64,000 nt of DNA from Obrimoposthia wandeli (GCA_977020255.1 CDROCS010000907.1:62001-126000); one strand, 5' to 3'; positions 6,601 to 62,399 are shown, counted from the stretch's first letter. Numbers and translations are program-made. Notes: generated by a model not told the origin, from the sequence alone.

Positions 6601-9600
6601 TGAATTTTAATTTTTTAGAATAGAAATAAAATGAAATAGGTCACTTATTTTATTATTTGAATATTTAATATTTTGAATTTTAATTGTTTATTTTTAATGT
6701 AAGCATTAATTATAATGTCGTCATAGGCAGAACGCATAAAGATAGTATTGATATATATTATTGTATCATTGTAATCCGAAGCAGTCCACGCCAAATTAAA
6801 AAACAATATTTAATAAAACATATGACTATTTTAATGCATATGGATTATTATCATACAAAATGTATTCCAAAAATTTATAATCTTTTATTAATGAATTTAC
6901 ACATAAAATTGAGATAAAAATAAATGGTAAAACATTCAAAAATAAAGTTTTAACTTCTTTGAATAAATTGTTTTAATAATACTTAATTATTTTTATCAGT
7001 GTTTAGCGCCAAATTTAAAAGTAAGGAAAACGGTCGAATACTGCCTATAAATTAAATGACTCGTTATTGAAGTATATCATTATCCTTTTCTGTTGCATGA
7101 TATTTTCTAACTGATTATATATATTTTTTAATGCGGATCTCAAATTTGAAATCAGTTTTCCTCTAATTTCCTCTAGTTTTCGTTTCTCTAATATTTATAA
7201 AACTTTTTCGTATTTTATGATGCACATGAACTTTTTATGTGAAAAAATTAAGAAACTTGTTGAAAATACATTTGTGTTGAGTATAATTTTAAGACTATAT
7301 GACTGTACATTTTCTATATAGACCATACCCCAATGCGAGTCGTCTAAATTTGCAAACAAAAATAGAGCTTACAGAGAAAATCTAATTGTATATTTTAATT
7401 CAGCATACCAAAATTAGTTAATAAAAAAATGCTGATATCATTTAAACAAAAACTTTATGTCCGGTGATTAATTTCTTATCGAATTTTATAACAATAATAT
7501 ATTTAATATAGCGCTAATATTTAATTGATCTATGATTTTTTATTCAAAAGCGTTTTCTGCAATTCGTAATAGTTCCTGAATGGTAAAGTCTAGCTGCTTA
7601 TTGAAATTTTAAACATGGACACAGTTTCTTATATTCATCAGAAAATTGTTGTAAAGATTTGGAGCAACGATCATTGTTGCTTCCAAAAATTTACAATCCA
7701 TGCACATATTTTCCAAACATTATAAATATTTTCTTCTTTAAAAATTGTGCCTTGCATAAAATTACTTTAATTTTTTTTAAAGTCATCATCTGATATTGAT
7801 TTTTAAAAAAATTAACTAATATAATAAATTTATATGATTATGGAAAATTTGAGTTCAAAGTACAATGACTTGATCATTTTGGTGAGTTCTAACCTAACTT
7901 AACTGAATATTAGTCACATTTTAAATAATGATTTTTTCAACACAGTTAAGTTTATTACAATTTTCATATACCTTATTTCAAAAAGTGACCAGAGAATCCA
8001 TCTTACACTAACATTATATACATTAAAAGATACGGATAACTCGTCATAAGAAAATCCCCTTCAGATAAACTATACAAATTGAGGGTTATATCCGCGCATA
8101 ACTTTTAATTTTGTTGTAAATTATAAATATTTTGAATACTTAAATTTTATTAAAAATTAATTTCTCGCTACTATATCAGTAAAAGAGAAATCAGAAATTA
8201 TTCTTGATTACGAGAAGAATAAACTTTATAAAAGTGATATTCAATTAAATATCATGTCATGAGTCAAAGTTTCAATTCATTGATTAAAAAGTGAGATGAT
8301 AAAGTAAAATGTTTGGAAGAATCAAGTTTGTCAAGTCAGCATAAAATATTTGATTGCAGAAAATTCACAACTGGATGAATTTCTCTTTAAATGGTTCATA
8401 CACATGAGGTCCAAAGCCATAAATGGTCTGTTACATATAGTTAAATCAAATGATTTTCCTACACACCTTCATGATAAGAACTTTGTATGTAGTGAAGGTT
8501 GAATACAACGCTTTAAAGTGATACATGAAATTGGTTGCCGTGTGGTAAGTGGTGAGGGTAAATCAGTTAATCCTGAAAATGTTAATCGATGGTTAACTTC
8601 TTGTGGAATATCTTTGAGGAATTTATACACTACGGACGAAACTGGACTATTTTAGCAACCATTTCCAAGTAACACTCTAGATGAGACAGGAGATGCATGT
8701 ATTGGGGGCAAATTAAGCAAACACAGAGTGACAATTACGGCCATGGCGAACGTGGATGGCTTGGATAAAGGAAATGTATGGTAATTGAACGTGTAGTATA
8801 TGTACTATATTATGTTTCTAGAATTATGAAATGTTTTTATATTATTAATGTTTTAAGATAAAAGTTAGTTATCTTGTTTATGATTTACAATCCATATTAT
8901 TCATGTATCTACTCCCATTTAATATCAAAATATTTATAATTTTTTAGATTTTGAATCTTCACTAAAATTGAATTTTCGCTTTACCACGGGTACGTCGTCC
9001 TTTTCTCTTCTTCCCTTGAGATAACGAGTTATCTGTCTTTACTGTAATGTAACAGGCGTTCTCTAAAAATCGGGACAGTTTGTAATTGTTATTTTAACAT
9101 TCTTTAAACAAATCTAATTTAAAGAAAAGTTACGGGTCCGTTATAACGTTGTACAATTATAATGCAGTATAAATCGGGACATCCTTTGGCAAGTAAAACA
9201 CAAATTGTCAAGTACATTCGCAGTGTAAGGTTCAAGGGTTAACGTACAACGGTATAAAATGTATTGGAAAAGTATGAAGAGAAAGTAGAGATTGAATAAA
9301 CAAGAGATTCGTTTAAGAAAACACTCAGTTTGAAGACATTTTCTCAACGAGTTCTTTATTGTGATCTGGGATCTGTTAGCACTTGATCGTGGATGGTATT
9401 GTAGGGAAGAATATCGGTAAATCAGTATTAGTATACAAGAATTCTCCAAAGTTTTCTAAATGATATGGGATGAAGTTTTTAAGGATCTAAATGGTTTATT
9501 AATTATTTGGTAATTTAATTTTCTGTCGAATGATATATTAATCGTTTCTATTCACAATTATAAACCATTTACGATTTTGAATATATTTTTACGGGATATT

Positions 9601-12600: not shown

Positions 12601-15600
12601 TAAATGGGAATTTAATTTTCCGGGTAATAATTCTTAATATATAATATTTCTTAGGTATAATTTACTACTTTTATTTAGAAGTAATACGTCTTTATATAAC
12701 TTAAGTTTAAATTTTCAATATTTTGCATTAATTACAATGATTTTGGGAACAAAAATTGAAAATTACCAGGATGTACCAAGCCGGGTAAGGATGAAACAAT
12801 TAGAAGCGCTAATTAATTTACCAATAGAAGCGCTAAAATGGTTTCAATCCCAAACCAAATAACAGGAAACGCCACCCACTGGTGGAAATGTCGGTGTACA
12901 TGCTGATTGGTCTTATTGCGACTGGCTGTCGAGATCGAGTGCATGATCAAATCAAGGACATGATCCAGAGCATGGTGGATGCCGGACTGAGTTTCCCGCT
13001 CATCTACTCCCTCAAGATGGTCAGCTGCTTCATCCAGCAACTAACAGGCGACATTCATGTGAGTCTGACACTAGCCGAGTCTCAAATCTAAGAGTGAACT
13101 TAAGAGTGAATGATAACTGGAGACAATACCAAATGCATCGGTTATTCGAGCCCTGAGATCAGCAAGGGTATGGGCATGGGTCTTGTACGCAACCTCCTTG
13201 TTCATAAGCTGCTTATAATAATCTAACTATTTATTTTCAATTATCAGGTTTGAGAAAAAAAATTCACAATAAATAAGCGTTTGTCCACAGTTAAAATTTG
13301 CGATATTATGATGAAATGATCGATTATACAATCACTATTCATTTGAGAAAAAAAAAGAAAATAGCAGTTATGTATTGATACTTTGTGTATCTTCGTATTT
13401 AACGATTGTCCATGGGATTATCAGAACCTAAATTATAACATTAATATTTTTTTATATATAGCGGTAATATCTACTAAATCTATAATTTATTATTCAAAAA
13501 TGCTTTCTTGTTTCCATTATTATACATAATATTTTCTGAATAGTAAAGACTTCAGCTGCTTCTTGATTTTTTTCAACATTGTTACAGTTTCTATATTCAT
13601 TTGTAGATTATTCTCAAATATTCCATCACTCTGTTTGTTATTTGATAAAATATTGATAAAATATGAAATGATCGATTATACAATCACTATTCATTTGAGA
13701 AAAAAAAAGAAAATAGCAGTTATGTATTGATACTTTGTGTATCTTCGTATTTAACGATTGTCCATGGGATTATCAGAACCTAAATTATAACATTAATATT
13801 TTTTTATATATAGCGGTAATATCTACTAAATCTATAATTTATTATTCAAAAATGCTTTCTTGTTTCCATTATTATACATAATATTTTCTGAATAGTAAAG
13901 ACTTCAGCTGCTTCTTGATTTTTTTCAACATTGTTACAGTTTCTATATTCATTTGTAGATTATTCTCAAATATTCCATCACTCTGTTTGTTATTTGATAA
14001 AATATTGACCAATCTGCTATCATTATCGTTGCTCAATAAGCTCATATAAATGTTTGAGCATTTGTATTAGAACACATATTTCGATAATATTACGATTTTT
14101 GAATTCAATTCTGGTATTAATTAGTCGCTTGTACTGGCATTTCTCTTCAATTTGAATATATTTCTGACGGTTTTGTTTCCAATTTTTTTGTAAGCGATTT
14201 ACGCTGGAATTTTAAATAGCTAATCTAGATAATTAACTCTTAAGTAGTTAAATGTTTTCTTAGTCGATAACTCTTTTTGATATGACGGTTGCATATTCTT
14301 ATCATTATTAATTTGACAATTCAGTGTAATTAATATTTTTAAATAAAATATCAAACTTTACTCTGAAAGCATGAACAGTAGCTATGTTAAGTTTGGAAAA
14401 GTGTTTGGTTTTCTGAATAACGAGATGGAGTTTCAGTTAAATAAATGTGTAATGTTTAAACTTGGCAAATCTGATATTAACTTTCTAACAATTAGCAATA
14501 TAGGTATATTAAGAGTTTAGGTAGTTTTGTCATTGTCGATAAATCAATGAGTATATTGACAATGACCATAGTGCCCTGTGCCAGGAGCTTTGCAAGCGGC
14601 GGTGGTGACGTCGGCTATACGGAATACATATAAAATGGTAAAATGTCAGTTTGAAGCCGAGTCATTGAAACAAGTCATTCCACATCGCCAGTTCTACTTA
14701 CCAAAGATGACCCACTAGGCATTCATATACAACAAACATTGACAGGGAGTAAGTACAGCAGCCAGTTGAGTCAATTATATTGATAAGAATCTGTATTTTT
14801 TACAATATCTAAATTGCTAATGCAGGAATTTTTTATATTCACTTGAAATTTTTCCACGTCTTTTTTGTGGTAATGTCGGCTGTGGTGATTATAATAAGTG
14901 AATCTATATTTTTATAAGTCTTTAGTCTGTTAAAATTGTTTTTAAAATATTTTCTTTATTAAATATGAAATTATTTGAAATAACTAAATTATTTAATTTT
15001 CATTTCATTTCTTACCAATTTGTCAACTACAATTTATTGCCGATTATTTTCACTACACCACCGACTGGCGCATGGCTCTAATGATTCAACAGATAAATAA
15101 TAAGATATAGTCATAAACTCAATAATAAAATTCAGATTGGAATTTCAAGTTTCAATCAAATATGTAATTGAGTCTCCACCAAGTTATTCTAAATAAAATT
15201 TTTAGATTTGCATTGAAAATTAATGAAGACAATATAAGACCTTCTGATTATTAAGAATATTGTAAAATCAAAATCAAATTATATGAACTTGGAAAGTGAA
15301 AATTCACGAAAATAAGTAAAATTTTCAACTAAAAAGAAGAAAACGGAAAATTTGAAGTATTCAGTACAACTACTATATAAGAATCATTTTGAAGCGTTCT
15401 TGTGCCATCTAGGTCAATCTACAATAAATTTTAAAAAATTATATAAGCAATTTTGAATAATGCGTCATTATATTTTAGCACTTCTTATATAAACTTTAAC
15501 ACAGCGATATCCAAACTGGAAGGAATGCGTCCCTGGGGAGGCATGGACTAGTGCAAAGGGAAGCGCAAAAATTTTAACAGAAAACTCATTTTCATACAAC

Positions 15601-18600: not shown

Positions 18601-21600
18601 GAGTTCGTCTTTCTGGAGTATTATCGACAAGTGGTTGAAATGTAAGCAAATCCAGACCTTCATTGTCAGAAACCAACCGACTCAAACGCCATGCATTGGC
18701 CAAGGAAGATTATATCAAATTCACAAATAGTGGCCACCTCCACTGCTTACCTTTTACTGAGATACGGTATCTTGAAACAAATGAATCATGTAAATCCACT
18801 TCGCCCATATACTTATTATAACTTTTGATCATTGTTGGTTGATCGACATTGATTAACTTCTTCTCGGATTGACTGAAGCGCTTGACGGAACAAAGTGGCA
18901 TAATGTGTTCAAAACTACTTGCCAAACACACATTCGCATTATCTTTCCATTCCACTGCAGTTATTTGAGCACTATTGTCATGGGCCCAATCAAATGTTCG
19001 TCGAGCTTTTTTGTTCCGAGTTTTACAGTCCATAAGGGGGCATTGTACAGGTCGGTTTTGGCGAACAGTTCCTGTAGCAAACATGCCATCATAACGTAAC
19101 TGTTCTAATAGTTTGTAGGACGTTGTATCTAATGCTATCACTTTCCACCAAAGTTTCGAAAACGCAACACCATCATTTAATAACTTTTAATCCATGGCTA
19201 AAAATTGACCATTTTTTAAAAATATACCATAGTATAATGCGTATGAATTTTATTCTAATTCTTCGAAAAATAATATTTATAATGTTTAATAAACATTACA
19301 TTATATAGAAGAATAAACATTTTGGACCAGTAAATCGGGTCTGTGGTTTGGGAAAGCAGTTAAATATTAAAAAATCAGTAAAATAAATAATCAATGTATT
19401 TGAATTTCTGATGTAGTTATAGACACGTACAGATTAAAAAATCAACAAATAAGCAGCAAACAGTTATTTATGTAGTGTTGCGAAAACACAACATTGGTGG
19501 TAAATGGGTTAATAGAATAAAAATCTTAATGTAATATGTCGATTTAGTATTTTATGTATATGGACAGTTGATTTTTTTTTCTATTAAAAAATTATTCACG
19601 AGTTATATTAACTATAATCACTAAAAAGTATCTAATTGTTCCATATTGAAATTCTTTTTTGTAATATTTTATTTTGGAAATAGCGTAACAAGTTTCGTCT
19701 ATTCCAAATAGTCCAATTTAATTCTATATCTGATTATATGAAAATAAACTCTAAAAATTCTGGTTAGGCCATGTTTTCAAAAACGTAAATCAAATTATAA
19801 AAAAATGCAACATTGTGAGAAAACGTAACCCCAAAATATCTTGCAATATATCTTTGAAAGATCATTTTAGTTAAGATGGCACTACACAATCCATTCTTCA
19901 TATCATAAAATATTCTTTGATATGATCAAATCTCTAGTAAACAGAAAATAAGAAAATAAGGTTGTGGATTAAAGCTATAATTGAAATAACCAAATTGACA
20001 TGTTAAGGTGGGGCAGAAGAGTGACAAATAAATTTCATGTTTCACTGACTTTTATAAAAATTTGGGATCACGTCTGAGTTACCCCCTATAAACAGTACAA
20101 GTCTGAGTTACCCCCAATAAAAATAACAAGGCTGAGTTACCCCCCAAAATTGTTAGTTTTGCTTTATTCAACAAAAAAATGTCATAAAAAAACTAAAATT
20201 CTAAAAATTTACTTTTATTCAATTAAAAAAAGATTAAAAAACTCTTCCACATTACCTCGGACGAAATAAACGTACCAGAGGAACTCATTAAGAAATTCAT
20301 TCCTTTTAATTCCCAAAACACCTTTTTTTCCTTAATAGTTAGTTTTAATTTATTGTTAAAACTCTCAACTCCCTGAGTATTAACTCCACTTTCCGGTTTC
20401 CCAAAATGGTATTTGTGACACACGGTTCGGTGTTCAAACCCAGTAATACTTCCCAGGGTTTTATAACTAGCAAATTCATCAGTATGGATGATACTTCCAT
20501 GTCTTACAACTTTGGAAATAATGGGAATGATTGTGGTTTTGGTTCTGTTCGGTAACAAACATCAAAAACATTTGGCTGGGGTCGTAGATGTATCAACAAT
20601 ACATAACACCCATGTTTGACTTCTTGGAGCTCTTCCTCGATGGGCTTTAACTGTATGGTTAACCATCACTTCATCAATCGGCACAATACAGCCTGGCCCA
20701 CCGAGCATGATTGGATTTTTCATGAAATGTGTATCAATTTATTTATTGAAACGTTTTTTTAATTTTCAGATTTGAATGTCTTGCCATTCCAACATAGTTT
20801 TCAATCTCAATCAATATATGTTTGTTACAAAGGTGTCCTAAAACTACTAAAATGTTCTTCAAAGGTTTTTGAACATTAAAAAAACCGAATTGGTTTTTAT
20901 ACTCTTGGTTGTTTGAAATTTAATACATCTAGGGTTAAGACACCTCCAATTGTATCCATCACAATTATCTTTGGCGGGTTTCAATATCATAATAACTTCA
21001 CAATACTTACAGGACATATCTACCTTTATTAATCCTAGTGTCATTGCAAACTGAACGATTTCCTCGTTTTGCGACCTTTCTACCTTGGATAAAAATCCAT
21101 GTAATAACATTTGGGTGGATTTAAAAAAAAATTTTAATCAATTAATTTATTAATCAATTACTAACTAACTCAAATCCTCCTGTATCCTTCGGATAGGACC
21201 TACGGTCCCTAACTAACTAACTAAATAGTCATATTTTTATAAATAAGTGTATTTTTTATGTTGTTTAGTTTTATTTTTTTTATTTGCAAAAAAATACAAG
21301 TCTGAGTTACCCCCCAAGTGGGGGGTAACTCAGACTTTGTCCAAAATTTGTTCATGTCAATCTTAGGATATGAAAGAATAGGTTCTAAAGACATGATTTG
21401 ATTATGTATGGAGCTGATGATTCACTGATTTCATCAAAGGCTTACAACGAAGCTTACTTTTAAAGAGGAGATTATAGCTCACATTGGGTCATTCTACCAT
21501 ATGTTCTTTCCATCCACCTCATCAAAATACTTGCCTGTTCTATCTTTTATAAAGTTGTTTAGCTATTTTATTGAACGCACCCCGACAGCTTTGGCATTTC

Positions 21601-47711: not shown

Positions 47712-49110
47712 TACATGTAATAGTTATATTGTACAGTCATGAATTGTATTCATTACACATAAATTAAAATGTTAAAAATCTATGTATCTTTAAAAATACT
47801 GCGTTTGACTAAAATCCATAATAATTATAACTTTTAGGAAGGTTCATTTTCGACACTGCCTATTAATTTTATTATCACCTTATTTTATACTTTTTCTGAA
47901 TAAACTTATATATTATTAAAACTAGAAATGGTCATACTTATGTACAACTTATATTTGGTATCCATTTTCTTAGATTGTGTCAAATTTTTGTAGTGGAGCA
48001 TATTCCTGATACAAGAGTGTGTTTCGCAAGACGAGAATTTTAAAATAATATTATTTGACACGTCTTTTTGAGTTGTTCAATGTTAAATTAATGTAAACAA
48101 ATTCTCTATGATTTCTCATTAATTATTTCAATTTACCGCTTTTGTCGTGCTGTATTAACATAACGAATCGCCGTCTTCAGTTATTTGAAGCGTTTTTGAC
48201 TCATGCAATCACAGAAATAAAGCACGAAAAAAGGTAAAATTTAAATATATACTCAAAAAATATATAACAAACGACGGTGTTGAACGGCAAAAGGGATAGC
48301 ATCAGTTTTTCAATGCGAAATTGATATCGGAATAAGAAACAAAATGCACAAACACAGGCATTAATTCATTCTAGAGGAGTAATCAAAGGATCACCAGGAA
48401 TGTAGAAGATTATCGCTAAAGTTATATTTTTTGAAAGAGTTGTCTTGCTTAATCGACCAAATGGGGAGAACTATTTTATGCACAGACCCATTTCTTAGCT
48501 ACTAGTCGAAAAACATGGCACGATGCATATATTTTAACGAATTATTTGGAGATTGAAAAAGGAACAACAATTCAATAAAACACCACCAACGTGAAGCACT
48601 TCCGAGACCGTTCATATTAAGATTAAACATTTCAAACACCAGAATTACAAAATAGTAACACATTAGATTTTGACTATAGTGACGATATTCCAGAATAAGA
48701 AATTGCCAGAATAAAAGATATCGCTGTAGTTAGAGGATATATTTGAAGTAATGCAAGAAATAAAAGAATGTGACGAACAATATTGGAAACTGACTATTAA
48801 ACATACAAAACTTATAATATTAGCTAAAAGAGAACTTTTTGTTATAAAACAATGATAATATGTCATAAATGACACAATTGTAAAAAGAAACGGCAAATTA
48901 ATCACACATACTTGAGTTACTTGGACAATTCTGGAATGATTCCGCATCATAATCATTAAGCTGCAAAAAAGTTTGAAAATGGAATTAACAAACAAATTCT
49001 TATCGCGTAATTTAGTATTCAACTATACATTTTGGAGTAAACATGATACGCCGAGAAGGGAATATAATTGAAGCACAACAAACAGCAGATATTATTGGAG
49101 TAAATAATTT

Positions 49111-52100
49111 TTGTCGATTTGTCGAAGAATAATAGATCGACAAGTGAGAAACATTAGATTTCACTATCCAAACAAAGGAAGTGGACCGACAGAGTGTAAT
49201 AATTCGATAAATACAATATACCATATGGGAAATATAAATGGAGCGCAGCGACCAGCAGCTATCATTAGAGTAAATAATTTAAGAGTAAAAGCCTTAATTG
49301 ATACAGGTGCTGTAGCTTCGATAGTAAGTGAAGACTGTTTGACAGAGGAACAGAAACGAACAATGGCAGAACCAGATGAATTCTTGGTATCGGTCAATGG
49401 AGACCCTGTTAAAGTGACGGGAATATTACCATGTACATTTATAATTGGGCGTAACACGATCACTATACCAGTTAGAATCATGAAAGAATGTCCTGAACCT
49501 ACAATTTTAGGAATGGATGTACTATCACAACTTAAAGGGATAAGTATTGATTTACAAGATCCAAGATTGAAGGATAGCACATCAAACAGACAAATAAACC
49601 AAATTGATGTAATTATAGAGAATCCTATAAAAATCGGTAAAAGATCACAATTTCTCATTCAAGGTCACACATTATCAGAAGATAAAGGACCAGTTGTGTT
49701 CGAACCATCACGAGATTTCATAGAGAAATACGAATTACCAGTTGTGAGTACAGTATGTCTGATCGAAAACCACAAAATACCAGTTAGACTGATGAATACA
49801 ACCAACAATGACATTCTATTATACAGAGGAATGAGGTTGGGAAAGATAGCACAGATGGAGAATCCCACCGTGTGTGCTATGAAACTCGATAAAGATACGA
49901 ATGATTATGAAGAAATAGTAATCCAATCAGAAAGACTGACAACTAGAGAAAAGAAACAATTACTTGATCTATTACATAAATTTCCGAAAGTAATTGCAAA
50001 AAATCCATATGACATAGGAGAAACACCTGTCATAAAACATACAATACCACTGACAGAAGACAAAGTAGTCAGAAGAAGACCATATCGAGTACCATTACAA
50101 TTACAAGATGAAGTAAAAAGTCAGATCGAAGATATGTCTAAAACAGGAGTAATTAGACCGAGTTTTTCGCCATTCTCAGCACCTGTGGTGTTGGTAAAAA
50201 AGAAGGATGGGAAAATGAGATTCTGTATAGATTTCAGAGAACTGAACAAGATCACAAGAAAAGATGTGTATCCATTACCTAGAATCGAAGAGATGCTCGA
50301 TAAATTGGGTAATTCAGATTATTTTACGACATTGGATTTGCAGAGTGGATACTGGCAAATCGAGATAGAGGAAGAGGATAAACACAAAACAGCCTTTTCC
50401 TGCGGAGATGGATTATACGAATGCGAAAAGATGCCATTCGGACTGACAGGAGCTCCAGCAACATTTCAGCGTTGCATGAATTTTGTGCTAACATCGTGTG
50501 CAAACACGATGGTTTATATTGATGATATCATAATATTTTCTAAGACGTTCGAGGAACACCTAAAAGACCTTGAAGTTGTATTTAAAAGACTGGAAAATGC
50601 TAAATTAAAAGTTAAACCTACAAAATGCGAACAGGCTAAGGAGCGAGTAAAATTTTTAGGACATATAGTATCGAAAGAAGGTATCCGACCTGATCCAGCA
50701 AAGATCGAGAAAGTAAAAGCGCATCCAGCGCCAAAGACTGTTAAGGAAATACAGAGTTTTTGGGTCTTGCGAACTATTATAGACGATTTGTTGAACAATT
50801 TTCAGATATAGCAACACCATTGAGAAAGTTGACGAGGAAAGATGAGAAGTTCATATGGGAAAAAGAAGCACAACAAGCGTTCGAGCGGATTAAGGAAAGA
50901 CTGATAAAAGCACCAATATTAGCGTTTCCAGATATAAACCGACAATTCATACTAATGACAGATGCAAGTAACTATGCTGTAGGAGCAGTATTGGGACAAG
51001 AGGATGACAAAGGAAGAGAACACGTCATCGCATATGGAGTAGAGGGTTAAACAGAGCAGAAAGAGGATACTCTGTTATTGAGAAGGAATGTCTAGCCATA
51101 GTATATTCATGTAGACAGTACAGACACTACTTGCTAGGACAAAACGTATTCCTGTATACAGATCACAAACCACTACAGTTCTTGTATAAACATAGAGACG
51201 AGATGAGTAGATTAAACAGATGGTTTCTGAAATTGGCCGAATTTGATCTAGAAATCCGTTATAGAACCGGAAAGTCGAAGGGCAACGCAGATTGTTTGTC
51301 GAGATTGATAAATGTAGACGAGAAAGGAAACATAATTCCAGAAGAAAGTCAAGATGAAGTCAGTGACCAAAAAGGAGAAGCAAATCTACTAACGATTTTG
51401 CTGAAGACGGGTAAAATAGAAAAAGAGATCACCAAGGAACAGAAAGAAGATGAAGAACTGAGTCTAATCAAAGAACTGTTAGTGAAAGGAGATCTAAATG
51501 ATGAAATGACGAAAAATACTCGATGAAAAAAGGAATCTTGTATATTGTCAACAATGTCGGAAAGATAGTAGTAGTAATTCCGAAGTCATTGAAAACAGCA
51601 GTGAAGATCCAGTATCACGATGGAACACTGGGAGGACATCTGTCAGGACGAAAGACAATAGCCAGAATCAAAGAGAAGTACCATTGGGATGGTATGGAAG
51701 ATGACATAAAACTATGGTGAAAACAATGTAAAGTATGTTTAACCAGAAAAGACACTGGAACTCGTACTAAAGTTCCACTGAAACCGATGCCAGTTCCTTT
51801 GGCACAAATGGAATTCACAGCGATGGATATATTGGGATCATTGAGAGAATCGAGTAAAGGAAACAAGTACGTCATAGTATTTACGGACTACATGACGAGA
51901 TGGGTAGAAGCATACCCCATGCAAAACCAGAAGGCTGAAACAATAGCGCAGATCTTAGTGGAAGAGATAATATTTCGATACGGAGTGCCTAGAAAGTTAA
52001 TAACGGATCAAGGCAAGAATTTCACTGGAGAAGTAATAAAAGCAGTATCAAAGATATTTGGAATCATCTTCATTCTTCACCATATCACCCACAAACCGAT

Positions 52101-52745
52101 GGTCTAGTAGAAAGGTTTAATAAAACTTTATGTATCATGGTACAATCTTATTGCTCCGATAAGCAAGAGGATTGGGATAAGTATTTACCTTCATGTTTAT
52201 ATGCTTACAGGAATTCAGTTCGAGAGGCGACGGGTCACACACCATTCTATCTGATGTATCTCAGACAGAACAATATGCCAATGGATCTGGAGTGAACCGA
52301 ACCAACATATCAGTACCTAGAAACTGAACAATACATTGTCGTCATGAAGGAAAGACTACAAGATGCTTAAACTAAAGCAAAATTGAAATTGAAATTCAAT
52401 CAAGAAGGTTACAAGGAACAATATGACAAAAAGGCAAAACCACATGAATTTAGAATCGGAGATCAAGTGATGATATTTTACCCAGTCATCGAACCAGGTC
52501 TATCGTTTAAACTTCACAGACCATACAAAGTACCATACAAGGTGATACAGACAATTTCAACGAACTTGAAAGTAATCAACGAGGAGAACCGGAACAAGGA
52601 AACAATGATTGTACATGCGAATCGATGTAAACTGGTACCGAATAAAGATAATGCGTCACGATATGAGCTAAGATCACAGAAATTGAAGCTGAATACCAAT
52701 ACTATTAAACTTACACGAATGATCGAAGTGATCGAAACTACATAA
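49111..52745 (+). pseudogene. pol: Ty3/gypsy pol (protease-RT-RNase H-integrase), disrupted
   Basis: LIDTGA protease; RT (PFSAPVVLVKKKDGKMRFCIDFRELN, LDLQSGYWQ, MPFGL, YIDD); RNase H (LMTDASNYAVGAVLGQ); integrase HHCC (GGHLS...C..C), core (FTDYMTRW, LITDQGKNF) and GPY/F-like tail. Gypsy domain order; frameshifts near 50760, 51050, 51520 and 52100. Confidence 0.95.
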
Positions 52746-52750
52746 ATACG

Positions 52751-55700
52751 ATGACAAGTGGTAGCGATGAAAAACCAGCGAGAATTGGCATGCTCAGAAT
52801 GAAGCACCAAGAGGAACGAGAAGAAATCCGACACATCGCATCACAAGAGATATTAGAAGAAGACGAAGAGATCATAGTCGTTTTCGAAAGAACACAACTA
52901 ACAGATGTGGCGAAAGAAGTCAGTGTAAAAGATGCACTAACAAACGAATTTATGTGCGAACTTAGAGTGTCATATTTCAATGGAAATACACTAGTCGCAG
53001 AACTGCATCAAAACTCCAATGTGTTTACGACTGAGAAAGTGATAATAGAAATCACATTGACATCAAACATAGTTGCATGGCAGAACTATGACAGTACCGA
53101 AGCATGACTAGCCAGTCAGGAAGAAAAAGAACCGGCCGGTGGTAATATACTTCATGGTACACCAAAAAGACTCAAACAGGAATACCATGATGTGATAATG
53201 GTATTACGCAATTCACATGGGAAAAAAGATATAGTGAGAGTTCATTTAATCGACGCCGACACAAAAAAGATAATATGTCAGATGGTCACCAAATACTTTG
53301 ATGGAAAGACCATTGTATGTAATATACCGGTATCTCACCAATTGAAAACAGATCAAACGGAAGTATTTGTAAGGTTGAGCGTAATAGAAGGATTCCATTC
53401 GCCAACCCAACCGGAAGTAACAAACAATAACATCGTTGAAGCAACGGCAGAGTTACGCATTAACAGCGGATACCGAAAGTGGGAAGCTAAAAATAAACCA
53501 CAAAGAATCAATATGATCAGAGAACAAGCGACAAACTCAATCCAGCCAATATATCATGCTGAAATAGTATCATCTGCGCCAAGTGTGATTACATCGATAA
53601 ACGACGAAATTATAATTTTACTAAAAAATCGATGGCCATCATCAACCGAGATACGAGTCAACTTAGTGAATTATGCAAAAACACCGATATCTAAGCTAAA
53701 TGTCACCTATTTCGATGGATTGTCCATCATGGGTAAATTGGAAACAATTGTCATGTGCTATGGAGCACAGTTCCAAGTTGAGATAATTAAGGATAGTGTA
53801 ATACCTTATTAGATTCATAGAGACTCAGGACCAGTCAATCCAATTATTCTAACCCCTTCATTAATTTCAGTTCAAACAGACATACCAGAACACCCTTCGA
53901 GCGAGTCTAGTCAAGACAGCGAACCTGAAAGCAGCGATCCAGAGTCAACAGAATCCGAAGACAACATAATAGAGCGATTTGGAAGAACCATGGAGGTTGA
54001 ATTCGCCAAAGAAAACAGAAAAAGATGAAACATAGAATTCATGGAAAAGAATATACAAGAAAGACGAATTAAATCCGCAGAAGAGACCGAGTCAGAAGAG
54101 GAACTAACGAAGGAACAGACATCAGAGACAAAGATGAATATCTCTCCAGCAATACGAATGCTGAGAGGAAAGAAACTGGCGAAATTATTCATCATAGATG
54201 AACAAATAGAAAAGCGATTAGAAAGACTGAGACTTGAGGAATCAGAATTGATGCCACCAATGAGTGAGATAATTCCAGACATGTTATACCTCGGAAATGT
54301 GGAAGACGCAACAGACGAAAAGAAACTGTTGGAAAAAGGAATAACATATGTGATCAATGTTACAATGAATCACTAATCACGATACAAGACAATCAGAGCT
54401 ATGACATTAAGAGTGAAAGACTAAATGGAGGCTAATCTTCTCGAATGGTTCGGAGAAACAAACGAGATAATTTACAAAGAACTCCAAAACCAAGGAAAAG
54501 TATTGGTACATTGTCAGAAATAAATCTCTAGATCAGCAACCTTGGTATTAGCATATCTAATAAAGAGTAGGCGAATGCAGGTACTAGAAGCGCTGAAATA
54601 TCTACAAGAGAGACGAAGTATCGCGAACCCAAACCTTAATTTTTTGGGACAATTGTCAAATTACCAACTCTTGTTGCAAGAACGGAGACGGATGGATGAC
54701 ATTCCCGAAGATCCAAAGGAAAAGAATTTCCTCCAATCACTATCGTTGACCGGATTATTCTTAGTAGGAGTCGTTAAAATCACCCAGATAATGCCGCAAG
54801 TATTTCTATGTCAACCAATAGATATAGATACTACTGGATTGAAGTTCCACAGTATCAACAGAGTGATTAACATTGTTGAATTCGAAAACGAGATAATCAG
54901 TATATGTCAAAATACTGAAGATGATAATACACGTTATATACATGCTTCAAATCGGGAGGTAACCCACGCACAACTACACCTGAGGAAGTTGACTCAAACT
55001 ATCCAAGCCAAAGTCACAGAAAGAAACGGCGTTCTGATATATCAGAAAAAAGGTACAATGTTAGCACCTACCATAGGTGTATCCTTGTTGGTAGAGTACA
55101 TCAGAGGAAACGATGGTCTACATCAAACAGAATAGACCAGATACGGAATTCAAACCGTTACTCGTTCGAGAAATATAGAAATACTCCGAAAGAAGGTAGC
55201 AACAACGAGAAATGAATGAGTTTTCAACAACAGTGCCCAGCTATCAGTACCGAAGATTGCTAGCACTAGCTTGTTAAGTTGTCTAATGCCAACAACGGGA
55301 GCACAAGAGATAGGCTCCAACCACGGAAATAATTCCTGGATCAAAGAAATCAACAACTACATCATGCAGTACAATACACCGACACTGATGATGCTATTAG
55401 TGTTGATAGGACTGATCGATGTTTGGCTTATCAGAAAATGTATCCGATCCATAAGAACCGACATAGAAAGATTCCAGTTTGTAAAAATGAAGAGATCAAA
55501 CGGACCAACAACCCAAGCACTTGTTTATCTAGACGAAAGGATCGAGGAGAACATAGTGAATGAAGCAATATATTATCCACAAAACAGACGACTGAATCAA
55601 TTCCGAATGGACTATGAAGCTGACCGACAGCGCACACTCGATAGAATATCAGCAACGTTTGCAGGATGCGGGCTTGTAAAATGAATTGTAAAGGAAATAC

Positions 55701-57580
55701 AAAAAGATGCAGATACAAAAGGTACGACGTATATATTCGACGGCGATGTCATCAAAACACGTGAGTATGGAAGTAAGAGAGTGATAATCGAAACGAAGGA
55801 AGGACATAAAACATGCTTGTCCGCCAAAAATGGATTCGGAAAGCTGGTGATACAAGGTAAACAGGTACAGTTGATTATCGGGAAAGCCGGAGTCGAAGAA
55901 ATGTCAAAACAACGCCAGACAACCAAGACAAAACGACATGACCAGAAACGGGTGTATCTGAAACGAATAATAATCAAAACCGTTTTGAAAAGGACGACCA
56001 AGGCCCTGTACACTGTCGCACAAGGATTGATCTACGGAGTAGTAATTGGATTGGTACTACAAGCCATTCCAACGAGTAAAGCTGAATTGATGACGCTACC
56101 TGAATATAATCTACATTTGAGAAATCTAGATAACACCCTAGAAATAATCAAGACGTCTCACAGTAAAGCCGTGATGATCACGTGTGTGAAAGGATATCCA
56201 GAACGAGTATATATAATACCAGCGACAGAAATGAAAAAACTAAATGGATATTATGGAGTTAATGTTGTCACATGTGAAGGATACACATTTGTACAAACTA
56301 AAATAGTACATATCAGTGACATGTCCAAACAAAGTACACATAAATTTAAAATATTAACCATCAAAAGTAAAGGGATACAAGCAATACGTTATGGTATTCT
56401 AGAATTGGTTAATCCAATACTGGCATTGATTATCGGAATCATAATATTAATACTACTCCTCTTGTTTTGTTGTACAAAGATCGAGCTGAAATCAAAAAAG
56501 AAACGTCATGATCTCGCAAGACGAACAGGTAAAATTAATTTACAAAAATTCGACACAACTATACCAAGACCAGCATTAATAAATGAACCAGCACCGGAGT
56601 ATCAGCCAACGATATATGAACATATCGAGGAAAGACCGTACTTCATGAGTAACTTGAGTTATCCCAGAGAAGTTCCTGAGATTCGGATTCGAACGATAAT
56701 AGGAATCATGTTGATCATACAAATCACCACGACCGAGGCTGGTTACGAGATCATGATCAGTAAATGGAGACAAGATACGATACGTGCGTTATACATAGAA
56801 ATACCTATACTAAAAACGAATCACATAGTAGACATTCAACTACAAACATCCGCAACCGAAAATGTCGATCAGAAATTGTATGTCATCCGCCAGATTGAAA
56901 TAAAGATTGACAAACATACACTTTACTACCGACTGATACTATTCTATTATGAAAAGATATTATACCTACGAATAACAATATCAAAAAAGAAACGGATTAT
57001 CCAAATAATCCGAACAAAGTCAGTAATATTGCCTAACGACGAGCGCATCTGGAAAGTTATTGACAGGATTATGGTCACAGGTAAACGACGTAAAACTGTA
57101 TGGAATTCTGTTAATTTATTCTTCAGATTGTTAGAAACTGACCAGGTAACAGTGGCGTGTCCCAATCCAGATGACGGAATCAAATTCGCAATACAACGCC
57201 AAATGTTAGTACCACATTATGATGCAGAATGTCTATGTAACCGAATTTCCAGTGATGCTAAAGAGACCTCTACCGTAATCATAGTAATAACAGGTGAAAT
57301 ATTCTATATAACTCTAAGATACCAGACACGTTGATTTCGTGGACTAGGTATGAGCATCAGACCCAAGAAATTCAATTCCGGGAAACCAAACACAGTCATA
57401 AAGAAGGCAAAGGTGAAAGGAAGACAGCTCCATTCCGAGAAGCCAAAAGCAGTCATAAAAAAAGGCAGAGGTGAAAGGAAAATAGCTCGATTCCAGAAAC
57501 CAAAGCACAATTATCGAGAGGTCAAGAGTGATGGAAACGATTCCACTGGATCTCAAATCTCGAATAATAATACCCTTTAG
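52751..57580 (+). pseudogene. Single ~1,610-codon post-pol frame (TIG-like x3, DUSP, multi-TM env-like polyprotein) with ten internal nonsense codons
   Basis: ORFs 52751, 53192, 54041, 54542, 55271, 55781 and 57350 share one frame; the gaps between them contain only isolated stops (53105, 53810, 54026, 54374, 54422, 54521, 55133, 55217, 55682, 57332). Confidence 0.85.
54260..54680 (+). pseudogene. Dual-specificity protein phosphatase (DUSP/VH1-like) domain within the element polyprotein
   Basis: MSEIIPDMLYLGN...GITYVINVT...RVKD...GKVLVHCQK*ISRSATLVLAYLIK...EALKYLQERRSIANPNLNFLGQL: the full DSP fold motif set, with HCx5R interrupted by a stop. Confidence 0.92.
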
Positions 57581-57699
57581 ACAAAAAACAAAATATCCGA
57601 TACTGCGATTTATTAGAAAATCAGACATAATACACGGAAACCGAACAGCACCAATGGTAACGCCATCTAAACCAACAAACATCAAAATAAAATCAATCC

Positions 57700-57906
57700 T
57701 CAGACAGCGGGATAACTACAGTCAATGCTTTAATTGTAATGGCCGTAGTGTCAACTGCAGTAGTTCTTTTGACAGTCGTGTGCGTGAAAGGCAGTCAGGT
57801 ATGCCCAAGAATACGACGAAGATGCAAAGAGCTACGATGCTGTAATACAACCATGATGGAGGAAGTGGAATTGCGACCCTTACCTCCGCCTCCCATCAAG
57901 ACATGA
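57700..57906 (+). pseudogene. Frameshifted C-terminal transmembrane anchor and Cys/Pro-rich tail of the polyprotein
   Basis: SSDSGITTVNALIVMAVVSTAVVLLTVVCVKGSQVCPRIRRRCKELRCCNTTMMEEVELRPLPPPPIKT*. Confidence 0.6.
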
Positions 57907-58033
57907 CAAGTCAGAGGAGGTTGTAGATAAATTAGTGTGTAAAAATATGTAGAGATATATAGAAGCGAATGTACAAACAAGTGTAGAATCATGTAAAATT
58001 CATGTAGAAATTAATTGTCATCATGTATTTAGA

Positions 58034-58723
58034 ATGTCTGAGGAATGCCCAATATGTTTGGAAGATATAACCGAACGAAGAACAAGACCCAATACATGCA
58101 ACCACCTACACCACGAGGAATGTTTATCAAAATGGATCCCAACTTATGGAGAGTTTCCCCATCCAACATACCCTCGTTGCCCTGTATGCAGAAGACAATT
58201 CACAAAGTTCATCATAATAGAAACCAACCAAGAGGATGTAGATGTACAGGTGGAATTTTGTTGGAAAAATTTGAGAGAAAGTTGGTGTGTATATTCTGTA
58301 CAGCAGAACGACAAGATCCGACCACTTTTGTGTAAACATCACACAACAACCAACCCTAAATCGAGCCCAAATTCAACATCACCCTCTCACAGCAATGTCT
58401 GGAGAATGTTCCATCTGCTACGAGAACATCGTGGACCTCTACACCAAACCCAACAACTGCGAACACAAATTCCATGTCCAATGCCTCGAGACATGGATCC
58501 CAGTTGTCAACAGCAACAAGCCCCTCGACTACTCAACCTGCCCGATGTGCAGGGCATCCTTCTCGGTACACTTCGTATACAACCGAGACTGTCTTCAAGT
58601 AGTGGTACCCATCGTACACTGCTGGAAGGACATCTGCGACTGCTGGTGCATGTTCTGCGCGGAGGAGCGACGCACAGGCCAGTCCGACAGCCAAAAATAA
58701 TCGAAGGTAACTTTTTGAAATAA
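58034..58723 (+). CDS. RING-H2 finger protein 1 (putative E3 ligase)
   Basis: MSEECPIC...TCNHLHHEEC...W...CPVC, a C3H2C3 pattern; the 3' part overlaps RING 2 in another frame. Confidence 0.85.
   Translation: MSEECPICLEDITERRTRPNTCNHLHHEECLSKWIPTYGEFPHPTYPRCPVCRRQFTKFIIIETNQEDVDVQVEFCWKNLRESWCVYSVQQNDKIRPLLCKHHTTTNPKSSPNSTSPSHSNVWRMFHLLREHRGPLHQTQQLRTQIPCPMPRDMDPSCQQQQAPRLLNLPDVQGILLGTLRIQPRLSSSSGTHRTLLEGHLRLLVHVLRGGATHRPVRQPKIIEGNFLK
58395..58700 (+). CDS. RING-H2 finger protein 2 (putative E3 ligase)
   Basis: MSGECSIC...NCEHKFHVQC..TW...CPMC plus a Cys-rich tail HCWKDICDCWCMFC; frame intact. Confidence 0.88.
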   Translation: MSGECSICYENIVDLYTKPNNCEHKFHVQCLETWIPVVNSNKPLDYSTCPMCRASFSVHFVYNRDCLQVVVPIVHCWKDICDCWCMFCAEERRTGQSDSQK

Positions 58724-59017
58724 ACGTGACATCATGAACTAACCCTGTGTATCGCATACCGCGGTAAAATAGCTACCATAATTGTAATCATATTTGTATA
58801 ATCTTGTGAAACTGTAAAATGACCTTTACCAATTTTATGTATGATGTTTATTTGAAATTGTAATTATTATACTGGGAAACCCTAAAGACAATTTTATACT
58901 TAGAATGCGAAAAACATACCCAAAGAAAAGACAAAAATCGGTAGGTTAAAATATTAAGGTTTAAAATCATATAAACTTCAAATAAAAAAGTGATTTAACC
59001 GATACACCATTGTGCAA

Positions 59018-59547
59018 ATGATATGCTCGGTGTGCCTAAACAAAGTTCGGGACTCCTCGGCAATCCCTGCCGGGTGCCGACACCGATTCCACGAAACGTG
59101 CCTCTATATGTGGGCCAAAGCTCGACCCGCCGGCAACATCACATGCCCGATGTGCGAGCACCTTTCACCGAGTGGACGATCCAATGCTGTGGACGTTCAA
59201 AGGGCACCCGCTCACCTACCAGCTGTATTGGTGGCGAGTGGTGTCGATGCCCCATCTGTCCTGTGCGCCGTCGTGACGCGCAGCGCAATGTACGAGAGGT
59301 GTGGTGGTCTAGCCGTGATCACCACTCGTGGCAGTACGCTCGGCGAGTGTGGCTCAGCAACCATGAGCAGCACAGTTCCGGCACCCCTCTAATCCGTTAA
59401 AGCCCGCATCTGAATATTTTCCAGCAGCTAGGGCTTTACCAGGGTGACACTCCAGTGTTCCCAACGTTGCCCCTGGAGCGGGTGATGCTGTTCCTGGAGG
59501 AGCGGAATAGGCCAGTGGCCACCATCAACTTAACAATGGATGACTGA
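59018..59547 (+). pseudogene. RING-H2 finger protein 3, 1-nt frameshift near 59155 and stop at 59398
   Basis: MICSVC...GCRHRFHETC..W...CPMC; the shifted frame continues RAPFT (compare RASFS and RRQFT in the paralogues) with a Cys-rich tail. Confidence 0.8.
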
Positions 59548-60336
59548 TGGAACACTGACACTTTACCCTTTCCTTCACCTTTTCCTTCTCTTAACCTTCT
59601 CATTCTTAAAACAGTCATTTTTGTAAAAATACATGTCAATGGAATATTTGTTGACCATTTCCGAATTATTCGAATAAGACCGAAAAATACCAATTCTTGT
59701 CAACTAGTGGGTATGTTGAAGAGTAATTGAATGTTTGAAATTAAGTGGGGATGTTTTTTCTAAAATCTGGGATTAGTAAATTAAAATCGATACGTTCCGA
59801 GGACGTAACTTTTTTGGAACCCTCGAGATATGTTAGGATTAGGTTTTGATTAATTTAAAATAATTAATCATTTTTATACTAAAATAAAAATCCTTGAAAG
59901 CAAGGTTACAATTAAGATAAAATTAATTATAAAATTAAAATTATAAAAATAAAACCATTGGAAAATATTAGGACCACGAAGGCCATGTGTAAGCATGTGC
60001 AGTATATATAGATATTTAAACTAAACCAAAGGCCCCAAGAAAAACAGAAGAACTTCATTAAAAAGACAGAAACACAATCAAAGAAACATCGAAAAGGAAT
60101 CAAGGTAAGAAATATTAGCATTTAGCTAAATTAATTTCTTCCATATAGAGTGCTCGACAAGGAAACGAACACCGGACTCCATTAGTCATCAGTGGGAGCC
60201 AGCAGATGATAGTCTGCCGAAGAAACCGATTCAATTAGACCGATTCCATTAGGACTGTCACAGGAGGTGAATTTCAATATAAAAGAGAAATTACTTTATT
60301 TTTAAGAAAATATAATCCAGGAGTGAAATTTGGGAA

Positions 60337-60483
60337 CAGAAAGTCAATTTGAGAACTCGTCGATCTAATCCGAGTAGGAGAATAACAGAAAGTCAATTTG
60401 AGAACTCGTCCATCTAATACGAGTAGGAGAATACCAGAAAGGCAATTTGAAAGCTCGTTTATAGAATCCGAGTAGGAGAAAAC
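60337..60483. repeat. Three 49-bp tandem repeats
   Basis: CAGAAAGTCAATTTGAGAACTCGTC...GAGTAGGAGAATA at 60337, 60386 and 60435. Confidence 0.9.
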
Positions 60484-60692
60484 CAAAATAATTAGAGAAG
60501 CAGAAAAGGTGGGTCTGCAACGCAGAAAGCGAATTAACTTTCCTTTTTAGAAATGTAGAAAGGAGACAAAAGGAGGTCTTGTTACACAGACATCTGGGAC
60601 CAGGGAACTCGCACCGGACGCAGCTATCTCGGATTGAGGAAGACGCACTGCGAACTTGCACCAGACGTGCAGGCCTATCCGGAGGAAGGTAA

Positions 60693-60960
60693 GAAGTGCG
60701 AATTGATTTTATTCTAAAATAAGTGTTGTATTGAAGTAAATTTAAACGAAGAAGTGCGAATTGATTTTATTCTAAAACAGTGTTATATTAAAGTGAATTT
60801 TGAACGAAGAAGTGCGAATTGATTATTTATTCTAAAATAGTTTTTTTTTATTGTTGAATTTTGATAAAGAAGTTAAAGTAAAACTTGAAATTGCCCTATA
60901 TTTTACCGTTGAATTTTGATAAAGAAGTTAAAGTAAAAACCCTAAACTGCCCATATATTT
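60693..60960. repeat. Three 58-bp repeats followed by two 55-bp repeats
   Basis: GAAGTGCGAATTGATTTTATTCTAAAA at 60693, 60751 and 60809; GTTGAATTTTGATAAAGAAGTTAAAGTAAAA at 60853 and 60908. Confidence 0.88.
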
Positions 60961-62399
60961 AGAGTAAAGACTCTAGTTAACAAACGACCCTCAATTAAAA
61001 TCGATACGTGGACCATCACCAGTTGTGTAGAGACTTGTGAATGTCTTAGGAATAGTATTGTCAATTTTAGAACGTAATTAGAACGTGTTTAGCTTAGTGT
61101 GTCTAGTAATAAAAGATTTCCTACAACTAAACAGCGTTGTTATAGACCCTTCAAATTTAGAAATAACAAACCTTCAAATAAACTTAGAGACAGGCAAGCA
61201 TAACATTAAGTAGGCCACAAACATCTACAAGCCCTGCTTCTATAGAACTCACGTTGGGGCCTTCCATTCAGAGGATCTATATTAAAAAACAGTTTCATAT
61301 AGAAACCCCAACAAAAAGATAGATTAAAAAAAATCTTCTAACAATTAAAGTCTAGGAGAGATTTAGATGGACTTGATATTAATTACTTAACAAGATACAC
61401 AAGTTATAAAAAATCAAATTTTACTACTAAGAACAATTCTCATCATAAAAGGTCATAACCATAGAGTATATGCTCTACTGGACTAAGTCATAACAACTAG
61501 TATTATTAGTGACTAAGTTGTTGACTATCTAAATGTGAAGGGCTATATGGAGTCAATACCTATTTGAAAGATTGAAAGAAGAAAAAAGTAAAAGAGTTGT
61601 TAAGTGGTAAGCTGCAAAATTGAAAGTTATAATATACAAATAAGAAAATTTAATAGTGTTTTGGCGATTAAACAAACATCAGCCAAATTAAATGTTATAT
61701 ATATTGGGAAGATGCAACAAGACATTGAAATCATCTAAAATGAATAACGTTTCTTTCGATAGGAAAAGCAAGACATCAATAAGCTCCTTGGTTCGGACAA
61801 AATTGAATTACAGCGGTCTATTATCTTGTCGTTAGAAATAGAGGTGATCACGTAGACAGATTAACTTCACTGAAGTAAACATGCATATGAAGAGTAAAAG
61901 TAAATAAAGCTGTACAAAATCAAACAAATTTCATTCACACGTTGTCAATAAATACTGAGATTGACGTTCAATTAAAAAAATTAAGAAGTGGATAATATTA
62001 AAAATATATATGAGACGTCTTAAACCATTAAAGACTTATATATCAATCAACAACTAATTCATTACCTGAATGGATGGTCAGTACTCAATAAAAATCCAAG
62101 GGAACAAAATAAAAGTAAATTATTTTTTAATAATAATTAAAAAAAAAATTGTGCTAAATAATGATGCCTTGTTGAAAAGGGAATATGAAAATTTTGTTAT
62201 TATTTACCAGTTTTTATGACCTTAATAAAGTAATATATTAAAATTTTGATTATTTTTTAATTAAGCCTTACATTTACAAGATTCAATTATTTACTGAGTT
62301 TCAACCTGGATACTGTTGTATTTGTTATGGCTTTGAAAATATTAATGTTTATATATCAGATATAATTTTTATCATATAATAGGACAATTTTTTGGAAGC

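Follow-up and report, generated by a model that had tools for sequence, protein, structure and literature searches.

The stretch of DNA analysed here, 64,000 nucleotides from Obrimoposthia wandeli (hereafter the window), contains a Ty3/gypsy retrotransposon downstream of a TOR kinase gene. An accessory frame directly behind the pol region, ORF X, opens with three beta-rich repeats, R1 to R3. The features are as follows.

about 24100-47075, + strand: intron-rich TOR kinase gene, with mTOR_dom, HEAT, FAT, FRB, kinase and FATC exon ORFs
49204..50802, + strand: pol, aspartic protease and reverse transcriptase (Pfam gag-asp_proteas 5e-08, RVT_1 2.6e-39; tblastn of relatives)
50754..52745, + strand: rest of pol, fragmented, with RNase H and integrase (Pfam RT_RNaseH_2, RT_RNaseH, rve, Integrase_p58_C)
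52751..57334, + strand: accessory frame ORF X, 1527 codons with 9 internal stops and no net frameshift
52826..53104, + strand: repeat R1, a beta-rich unit, probably IPT/TIG-like, with TGA at 53105 next
53147..53470, + strand: repeat R2, the unit used for modelling, nearly all beta
53564..53809, + strand: repeat R3, the most diverged of the three, with TAG at 53810 next
53870..54130 (approximate), + strand: Ser/Glu/Asp-rich linker, read from the sequence, with one stop at 54026
54284..54667, + strand: dual-specificity phosphatase, MKP5/DUSP10-like (Pfam DSPc 2.5e-32), with three stops
55376..56473, + strand: membrane-protein tail with three strong hydrophobic segments at ORF X residues 876, 1085 and 1223 (Kyte-Doolittle)
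57913..57924, + strand: polypurine-tract-like motif followed by TGT; the pattern used found no second tract of this type within 57301-62000
58034..59392, + strand: three RING-finger ORFs starting at 58034, 58395 and 59018 (Pfam zf-RING_2 about 2e-08 each)

The earlier note on this DNA had placed the heads of the three repeats at 52826, 53147 and 53564 and had seen a YF(N/D)G motif after each of them. Both observations are borne out: the heads share a single + frame and the motifs are found at 52973, 53294 and 53708 in the three repeats. The heads are not equally spaced as had been claimed (successive heads are 321 and 417 nt apart, or 107 and 139 codons), the units are about 82-108 aa long rather than ~80 aa, and the proline of the P-x-x-I head is missing from R1. 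Internal self-similarity, proposed as a check, is evident for two of the three pairs, with Smith-Waterman scores of 71 for R1-R2 and 57 for R2-R3 that were each reached in 0/2000 shuffles, but it is weak for R1-R3 (score 38, reached in 42/2000). The frame that carries the repeats has a single stop in 328 codons, as compared with 35 and 18 stops in the other two + frames; the repeats do not lie within one open ORF, as the TGA at 53105 stands between R1 and R2 and the TAG at 53810 ends R3. A profile search of the 64-kb window found no fourth unit. No homologue of the repeats was found among 3034 candidates of 537-1710 aa from a 5.8-billion protein set, nor at E<=0.001 among 1.84 billion representative proteins; in the ESM Atlas there were three unnamed clusters at 0.82-0.83, under the lead level, and no usable named match, and a plasmid tblastn gave only three matches at E 1-8. 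That the repeats arose by chance in A-rich sequence, a reading to which the weak R1-R3 similarity and the want of a homologue in these protein collections lend something, is extremely improbable and already largely refuted by the two pairs that no shuffle matched, by the openness of the frame over the repeats and by an independent homologous unit in a related protein, P0011 (below).

ORF X begins with an ATG 6 nt past the pol stop, and its nine stops compare with 52-157 in the remaining five frames. Read with X at the breaks, it runs through the three repeats, the acidic linker, the phosphatase and the tail with its hydrophobic segments. Neither the retrotransposon setting of the repeats nor the phosphatase of this frame figures in the earlier note. 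The phosphatase scores 111.9 bits against the Pfam DSPc cut-off of 33.5, and its best PDB match is DUSP10/MKP5 (6.8e-25; 57 PDB sequences). Its catalytic loop is interrupted by one stop, with the Cys and the Arg retained, and Pfam lists no rhodanese-like MAPK-binding domain N-terminal of it. The tail has no match among PDB sequences. A search with phosphatase and tail gave 0/7999 scored candidates at E<=1e-5, a number that reflects the limited word filter of that search, since Pfam and PDB detect the phosphatase domain easily. ORF X residues 1-354 hold no hydrophobic segment (Kyte-Doolittle maximum 1.3) and a cytosolic enzyme comes after them, so the repeats are probably located in the cytosol, compatible with the cytosolic modules that the earlier note had suggested. 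No Rel DNA-binding domain was found in ORF X, where only 25 residues precede R1, or in P0011, and no CG-1 or TIR domain was detected ahead of the repeats. The window copy is a pseudogene and no longer functional. Its decay is uneven, with four frame changes over 3.5 kb of pol and nine stops without a net frameshift over 4.6 kb of ORF X, and three of these nine stops sit within the 128-codon phosphatase.

The pol domains come in the order protease-RT-RNase H-integrase, that of Ty3/gypsy elements. The four frame changes, located by tblastn frames, are near 50780, 51040, 51500 and 52070, and there are stops in addition. The 5' part of the element, about 48200-49200, is decayed. ORF X gave no match to an F- or gB-type env, the region upstream of pol being decayed, and no tRNA gene was found. 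A 53-nt duplication (81%) has one copy just ahead of the protease start (49058-49110) and the other at it (49228-49280). Perhaps this is what is left of a tandem protease arrangement such as that of the relative P0005, which has a tandem pair of aspartic-protease-like copies. At the other end, the polypurine-tract-like motif at 57913 may begin the 3' LTR, the second LTR not being found in the window. The RING ORFs stand just past this tract and may belong to a 3' LTR or to the host. RING1 is a paralogue of RING2, the codon bias of RING1 is element-like, and that of RING2 and RING3 is host-like. Tandem arrays occur by the 3' end of the element at 57375-57504 (58 nt), 60335-60480 (49 nt) and 60691-60873 (58 nt).

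We consider it very probable that the repeats belong to the Ty3/gypsy element. AT skew is positive throughout about 48250 to 58700 (0.13 to 0.43). The fraction of A at fourfold sites is 0.51 in the repeats, 0.62 in the phosphatase and 0.54 in pol, against 0.08-0.21 in four host TOR exon ORFs, and GC3 is 0.35, 0.39 and 0.29, respectively, against 0.65-0.70 in the same TOR ORFs. The cargo therefore shares the strand and codon bias of the element, which suggests that both have replicated together for a time sufficient for the cargo to acquire this bias. Could ORF X instead be a host gene or a processed pseudogene that came to lie beside a gypsy remnant by accident? Neither an LTR pair nor, upstream of pol, a recognisable gag match was found in the window, so that the element boundaries are not fixed, and the four frame changes of pol have no counterpart across the 4.6 kb of ORF X. 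These points speak for such an accident; nevertheless, we regard it as very unlikely, since ORF X resembles pol and not the host TOR gene in codon and strand bias, directly adjoins the pol stop, and has a relative in the same clade, P0011, with a homologous unit in frame after the integrase.

The relatives were collected with a protease-RT query, which gave 120 long proteins that served as the set for the RT comparison and for the repeat-profile search. Eight of them are 58-64% identical to the window RT, and the rest are at most about 53% identical. In a tree of 34 hand-chosen rows, with 86 rows dropped (long branches included) and no named reference clades, the window RT and the eight relatives form one group with 100/99 support; in a 120-row tree, which is incomplete, the window row is unresolved. 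The accessory region of the relatives is continuous in frame with pol, and seven of the eight extend beyond the integrase, with a membrane anchor at the end of the extension. A Monjiviricetes-type fusion protein precedes pol in two of them, P0016 and P0021.

A profile of the three repeats matched one of the 120 proteins, P0011, at residues 1328-1392, C-terminal of its integrase (E 0.00056; the next best was 0.64). The score of 10.5 bits was reached by 0/100 locally shuffled sets (maximum 9.6). Pairwise, against the P0011 unit as chosen by the profile, R1 scores 75 (0/2000 shuffles), R2 58 (1/2000) and R3 35 (114/2000), and hhalign of the repeats against P0011 gives a probability of only 11.8% (E 0.0025). 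Behind the unit, P0011 has a linker and then ankyrin repeats (Pfam Ank_2 4.5e-12). The best PDB match of these ankyrins is Bcl-3 (2.5e-06), with MIB1 (4.9e-06), Notch and IkB-alpha close to it; judged on these matches, the likeness to Bcl-3 is not specific. Protease-like copies, three of them after the integrase, flank the unit-plus-ankyrin block, and they could release it. The homologous unit occurs in just this one of the eight clade relatives, and the phosphatase in none of them, each being represented by a single protein without its flanks.

The earlier note had likened the repeats to IPT/TIG domains. This resemblance draws on weak structure matches and on the unit-plus-ankyrin order of P0011, but it has no IPT match at the level of sequences or profiles: Pfam, NCBIfam and PDB sequences gave no IPT/TIG, RHD_dimer or DBB match, neither for any of the four units nor for two profiles compared with PDB sequences. 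Known TIG domains share only 9-15% identity with that of BCAP (PMC7128310, Table I), so these failed profile searches weigh little. The AlphaFold2 model of R2, built from a three-row alignment, has a mean pLDDT of 58.5 with core blocks at 72-79, and it is nearly all beta, with six strands of >=3 residues and two short N-terminal strand pieces. The TIG fold is described as a seven-stranded Ig fold with a broken A strand (PMC7128310), and dimerisation via the ABED sheet is characteristic of IPT/TIG domains. Past the core the pLDDT of R2 falls below 50, and BCAP (6sws) was aligned over the core only; the DBB of BCAP, BANK1 and Dof is a TIG core with helices C-terminal of it. In the AlphaFold and Foldseek check that the earlier note had proposed, done here on R2, the model is beta-rich and Foldseek returned nothing at E<=0.001 from PDB and BFVD.

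Against 48,161 chains, the top match of the R2 model was a pyocin fibre with Z 5.4 and an rmsd of 3.4, level with plexin A2 562-643, which has Z 5.2 and an rmsd of 2.6. Plexin, NFAT5, NFAT1 or BCAP domains account for six of the 50 best chains (Z 3.9-5.2); we take the matched ranges of plexin A2 and A4 to be IPT domains. Four of the nine top-50 rows at rmsd <=3.0 belong to plexin, NFAT or BCAP domains. When 996 Foldseek chains were re-aligned, the BCAP DBB shared first place, with Z 4.6 and an rmsd of 2.6 over 67 aligned positions; NFAT1 and NF-kB p52 both reached Z 3.9. Overall, the IPT matches (PDB 6sws, 1imh, 8r07, 1a3q) span Z 3.9-5.2 and rmsd 2.6-3.5, and according to the tool a Z below 5.3 is in the range where matches may reflect merely a common arrangement. 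A two-copy complex prediction of R2, made without an alignment and with the partner fold uncertain, scored 0.00 and is evidence neither way. A likely beta-sandwich is what the modelling suggests for the repeat unit.

We favour the reading in which the unit goes back to the capture of an IPT/TIG domain like the intracellular ones (NF-kB/Relish, NFAT, BCAP/Dof, CAMTA), and consider it reasonably probable, as the weak structure matches are joined by an independent architectural argument. The order of an IPT domain and then ankyrins is found in Relish (PMC11682715), BCAP (PMC7128310) and CAMTA (PMC8428840); p105 and Dof share it. Likewise, ankyrins come after the unit in P0011; in the window a phosphatase takes their place. 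The units could instead be a beta-sandwich of a different type that works at the surface or as a structural part, either jelly-roll/CBM-like or derived by divergence from the cysteine-paired ectodomain unit of the clade. In four relatives (P0004, P0007, P0010 and P0011; weakly also P0005 and P0016), beta-type units of ~75 aa, in which two cysteines are conserved, recur before the membrane anchor in the post-integrase region, and in P0004 also ahead of the protease. No Pfam family covers these units, which are possibly an undescribed surface protein. Such ectodomain units in the relatives, the missing IPT sequence match and a single-sequence model of all three repeats make room for this alternative; that model reaches jelly-roll/CBM folds up to Z 8.2 with 0 IPT domains in the top 50, but its pLDDT of 33.6 makes it too poor to be trusted. 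The better model, that of R2, has its lowest-rmsd matches among IPT and other Ig-like domains. Moreover, a profile of eight ectodomain units from relatives does not match the repeats and scores at best -1.7 bits on ORF X, below the shuffle maximum of 4.1, and the repeats are preceded by no signal segment and followed by a cytosolic enzyme. A different beta-sandwich is, in our opinion, rather improbable.

The three repeats are diverged copies of one module of a Ty3/gypsy lineage, and they open a post-integrase accessory polyprotein. On the IPT/TIG reading, the following role may be proposed. Units without the DNA-binding half would pair in the cytosol with host Rel, NFAT or Dof/BCAP IPT proteins, and the paired units would act as dominant-negative decoys. 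Alternatively, the units would dock the phosphatase, itself without a detected MAPK-binding domain, onto JNK/p38-type complexes. The outcome would be that innate-immune or stress responses are damped in cells with an active element. MKP5-type enzymes turn off JNK and p38, and IkB-type ankyrins retain NF-kB. With a DUSP10-like phosphatase in the window and ankyrins in P0011, two elements of the clade appear to couple a homologous unit to two plausible signalling dampers. We regard a decoy or docking mechanism through host IPT-containing signalling proteins as quite possible, somewhat short of an even chance.

Alternatively, the units may be IPT/TIG-like and yet do no more than self-associate or act as spacers for the effector fused to them, the target being not NF-kB-type immunity but cell survival, stress signalling in the germline or the assembly of the element's own particles. 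Three tandem copies would fit this role, and the effector behind the unit differs between the window (phosphatase) and P0011 (ankyrins). TIG has been described as a promiscuous dimerisation module (PMC7128310), and the cargo of Burro, a giant gypsy-like element of planarians, has been linked to apoptosis and ubiquitination (PMC6431247). Both effectors are, however, of immune- or stress-damping kinds, one DUSP10-like and the other with Bcl-3/IkB among its best ankyrin matches, and we consider such a purely scaffolding role unlikely, though less so than a different fold. The decoy or docking proposal can be extended to a broader one, which we put forward as a tentative and on balance doubtful idea: an undescribed animal Ty3/gypsy lineage would carry swappable post-integrase signalling antagonists, in the manner of a large DNA virus, and blunt NF-kB and JNK/p38. 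The toolkit, proposed with equal reserve, would comprise IPT decoys separated from their DNA-binding halves, an MKP-like phosphatase and ankyrins of the IkB/Bcl-3 kind, to which RING ligases inside the 3' LTR might be added. If this were true, inducible innate-immune signalling, besides small RNAs, would restrict invertebrate retroelements.

Judged by its cargo, the Burro family (GYPSM1) is the closest known system to the window element. Burro is likewise a gypsy element with host-derived regulatory domains, i.e., MATH/TRAF, BIR, BCL2, ankyrin and a RING-type motif in a long polyprotein, and its cargo is proposed to meddle with host pathways (PMC6431247). In Burro the cargo is part of ORF1 and precedes the protease; that of the window comes after the integrase. 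The Burro review mentions no phosphatase and, in the part available, names no IPT/TIG domain (PMC6431247). Bdelloid LTR elements have diverse non-env ORF3s directly after pol, as in the window, which encode a GDSL esterase, a DEDDy exonuclease or TM proteins; phosphatases, ankyrins and immunoglobulins are not mentioned in the accessible sections of that paper (PMC5408684). The env-carrying errantiviruses, including GAG-ENV-POL types, are comparable in the fusion protein of P0016 and P0021 and in the membrane tail of the window, but the window shows no detected F/gB env, and the errantivirus main text mentions neither phosphatase nor immunoglobulin (PMC13524379). In a survey of accessory retrotransposon domains, the text at hand names no IPT/TIG or MKP-like cargo (PMC6338049).

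The intracellular IPT/TIG proteins themselves (BCAP/BANK1/Dof DBB, p105/p100/Relish, NFAT, CAMTA, EBF1) have like units, about 85-105 aa in size and beta-rich; the window units differ from them in having no detectable sequence similarity, in standing three in tandem, and in being phosphatase-fused and retrotransposon-borne. Polydnavirus phosphatases are known as classical PTPs and not as MKP-like DSPs. The comparison with polydnaviruses, whose vankyrins and protein tyrosine phosphatases (IkB-like ankyrins and phosphatases) are thought to subvert the host, is a functional analogy (PMC3210807, PMC3573978, in the parts available). Polydnaviruses are integrated dsDNA viruses of wasps that act on a second host, and no homology to the window element is implied (PMC3210807, PMC3573978).

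The capture of host domains by retrotransposons is already known from Burro and the bdelloid ORF3s. In the open-access literature, outside Repbase, Dfam and GyDB, we found no report of IPT/TIG-like modules or of an MKP-like phosphatase as gypsy cargo. If the IPT reading is true, a retroelement lineage has joined a dimerisation module of the NF-kB/BCAP type to two different signalling dampers, and the policing of invertebrate retroelements by NF-kB and MAPK signalling would become testable. P0011 offers an unbroken natural unit-plus-ankyrin region; the window copy is a fossil.

Genome contigs were scanned with the clade RT alignment, which gave 44 gypsy loci, none of them clearly in the clade: identity is 41-55% for near-full matches, with one at 37%, and 59% in one 474-base fragment. 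The repeat, the phosphatase, the tail and the RINGs occur at 0/44 of these loci. The 44 gypsy RT loci lie inside bacterial genome bins, and the clade member P0016 is labelled Flavobacteriaceae; both are most likely eukaryotic contamination. Elsewhere in the window, the TOR gene ends about 1.1 kb before element-type composition begins, and its exons, with GC3 of about 0.65-0.70, stand amid AT-rich surroundings; the FRB exon matches mammalian mTOR at 1e-23 versus fungal TOR2 at 3e-16. An exact 352-nt tandem duplication at 13311-14008 is possibly an assembly artefact; a second tandem pair of ~370 nt, 92% identical, is at 6175-6955, and a piggyBac-type transposase fragment lies at 18710-19141 on the - strand (Pfam DDE_Tnp_1_7, 3.5e-19).
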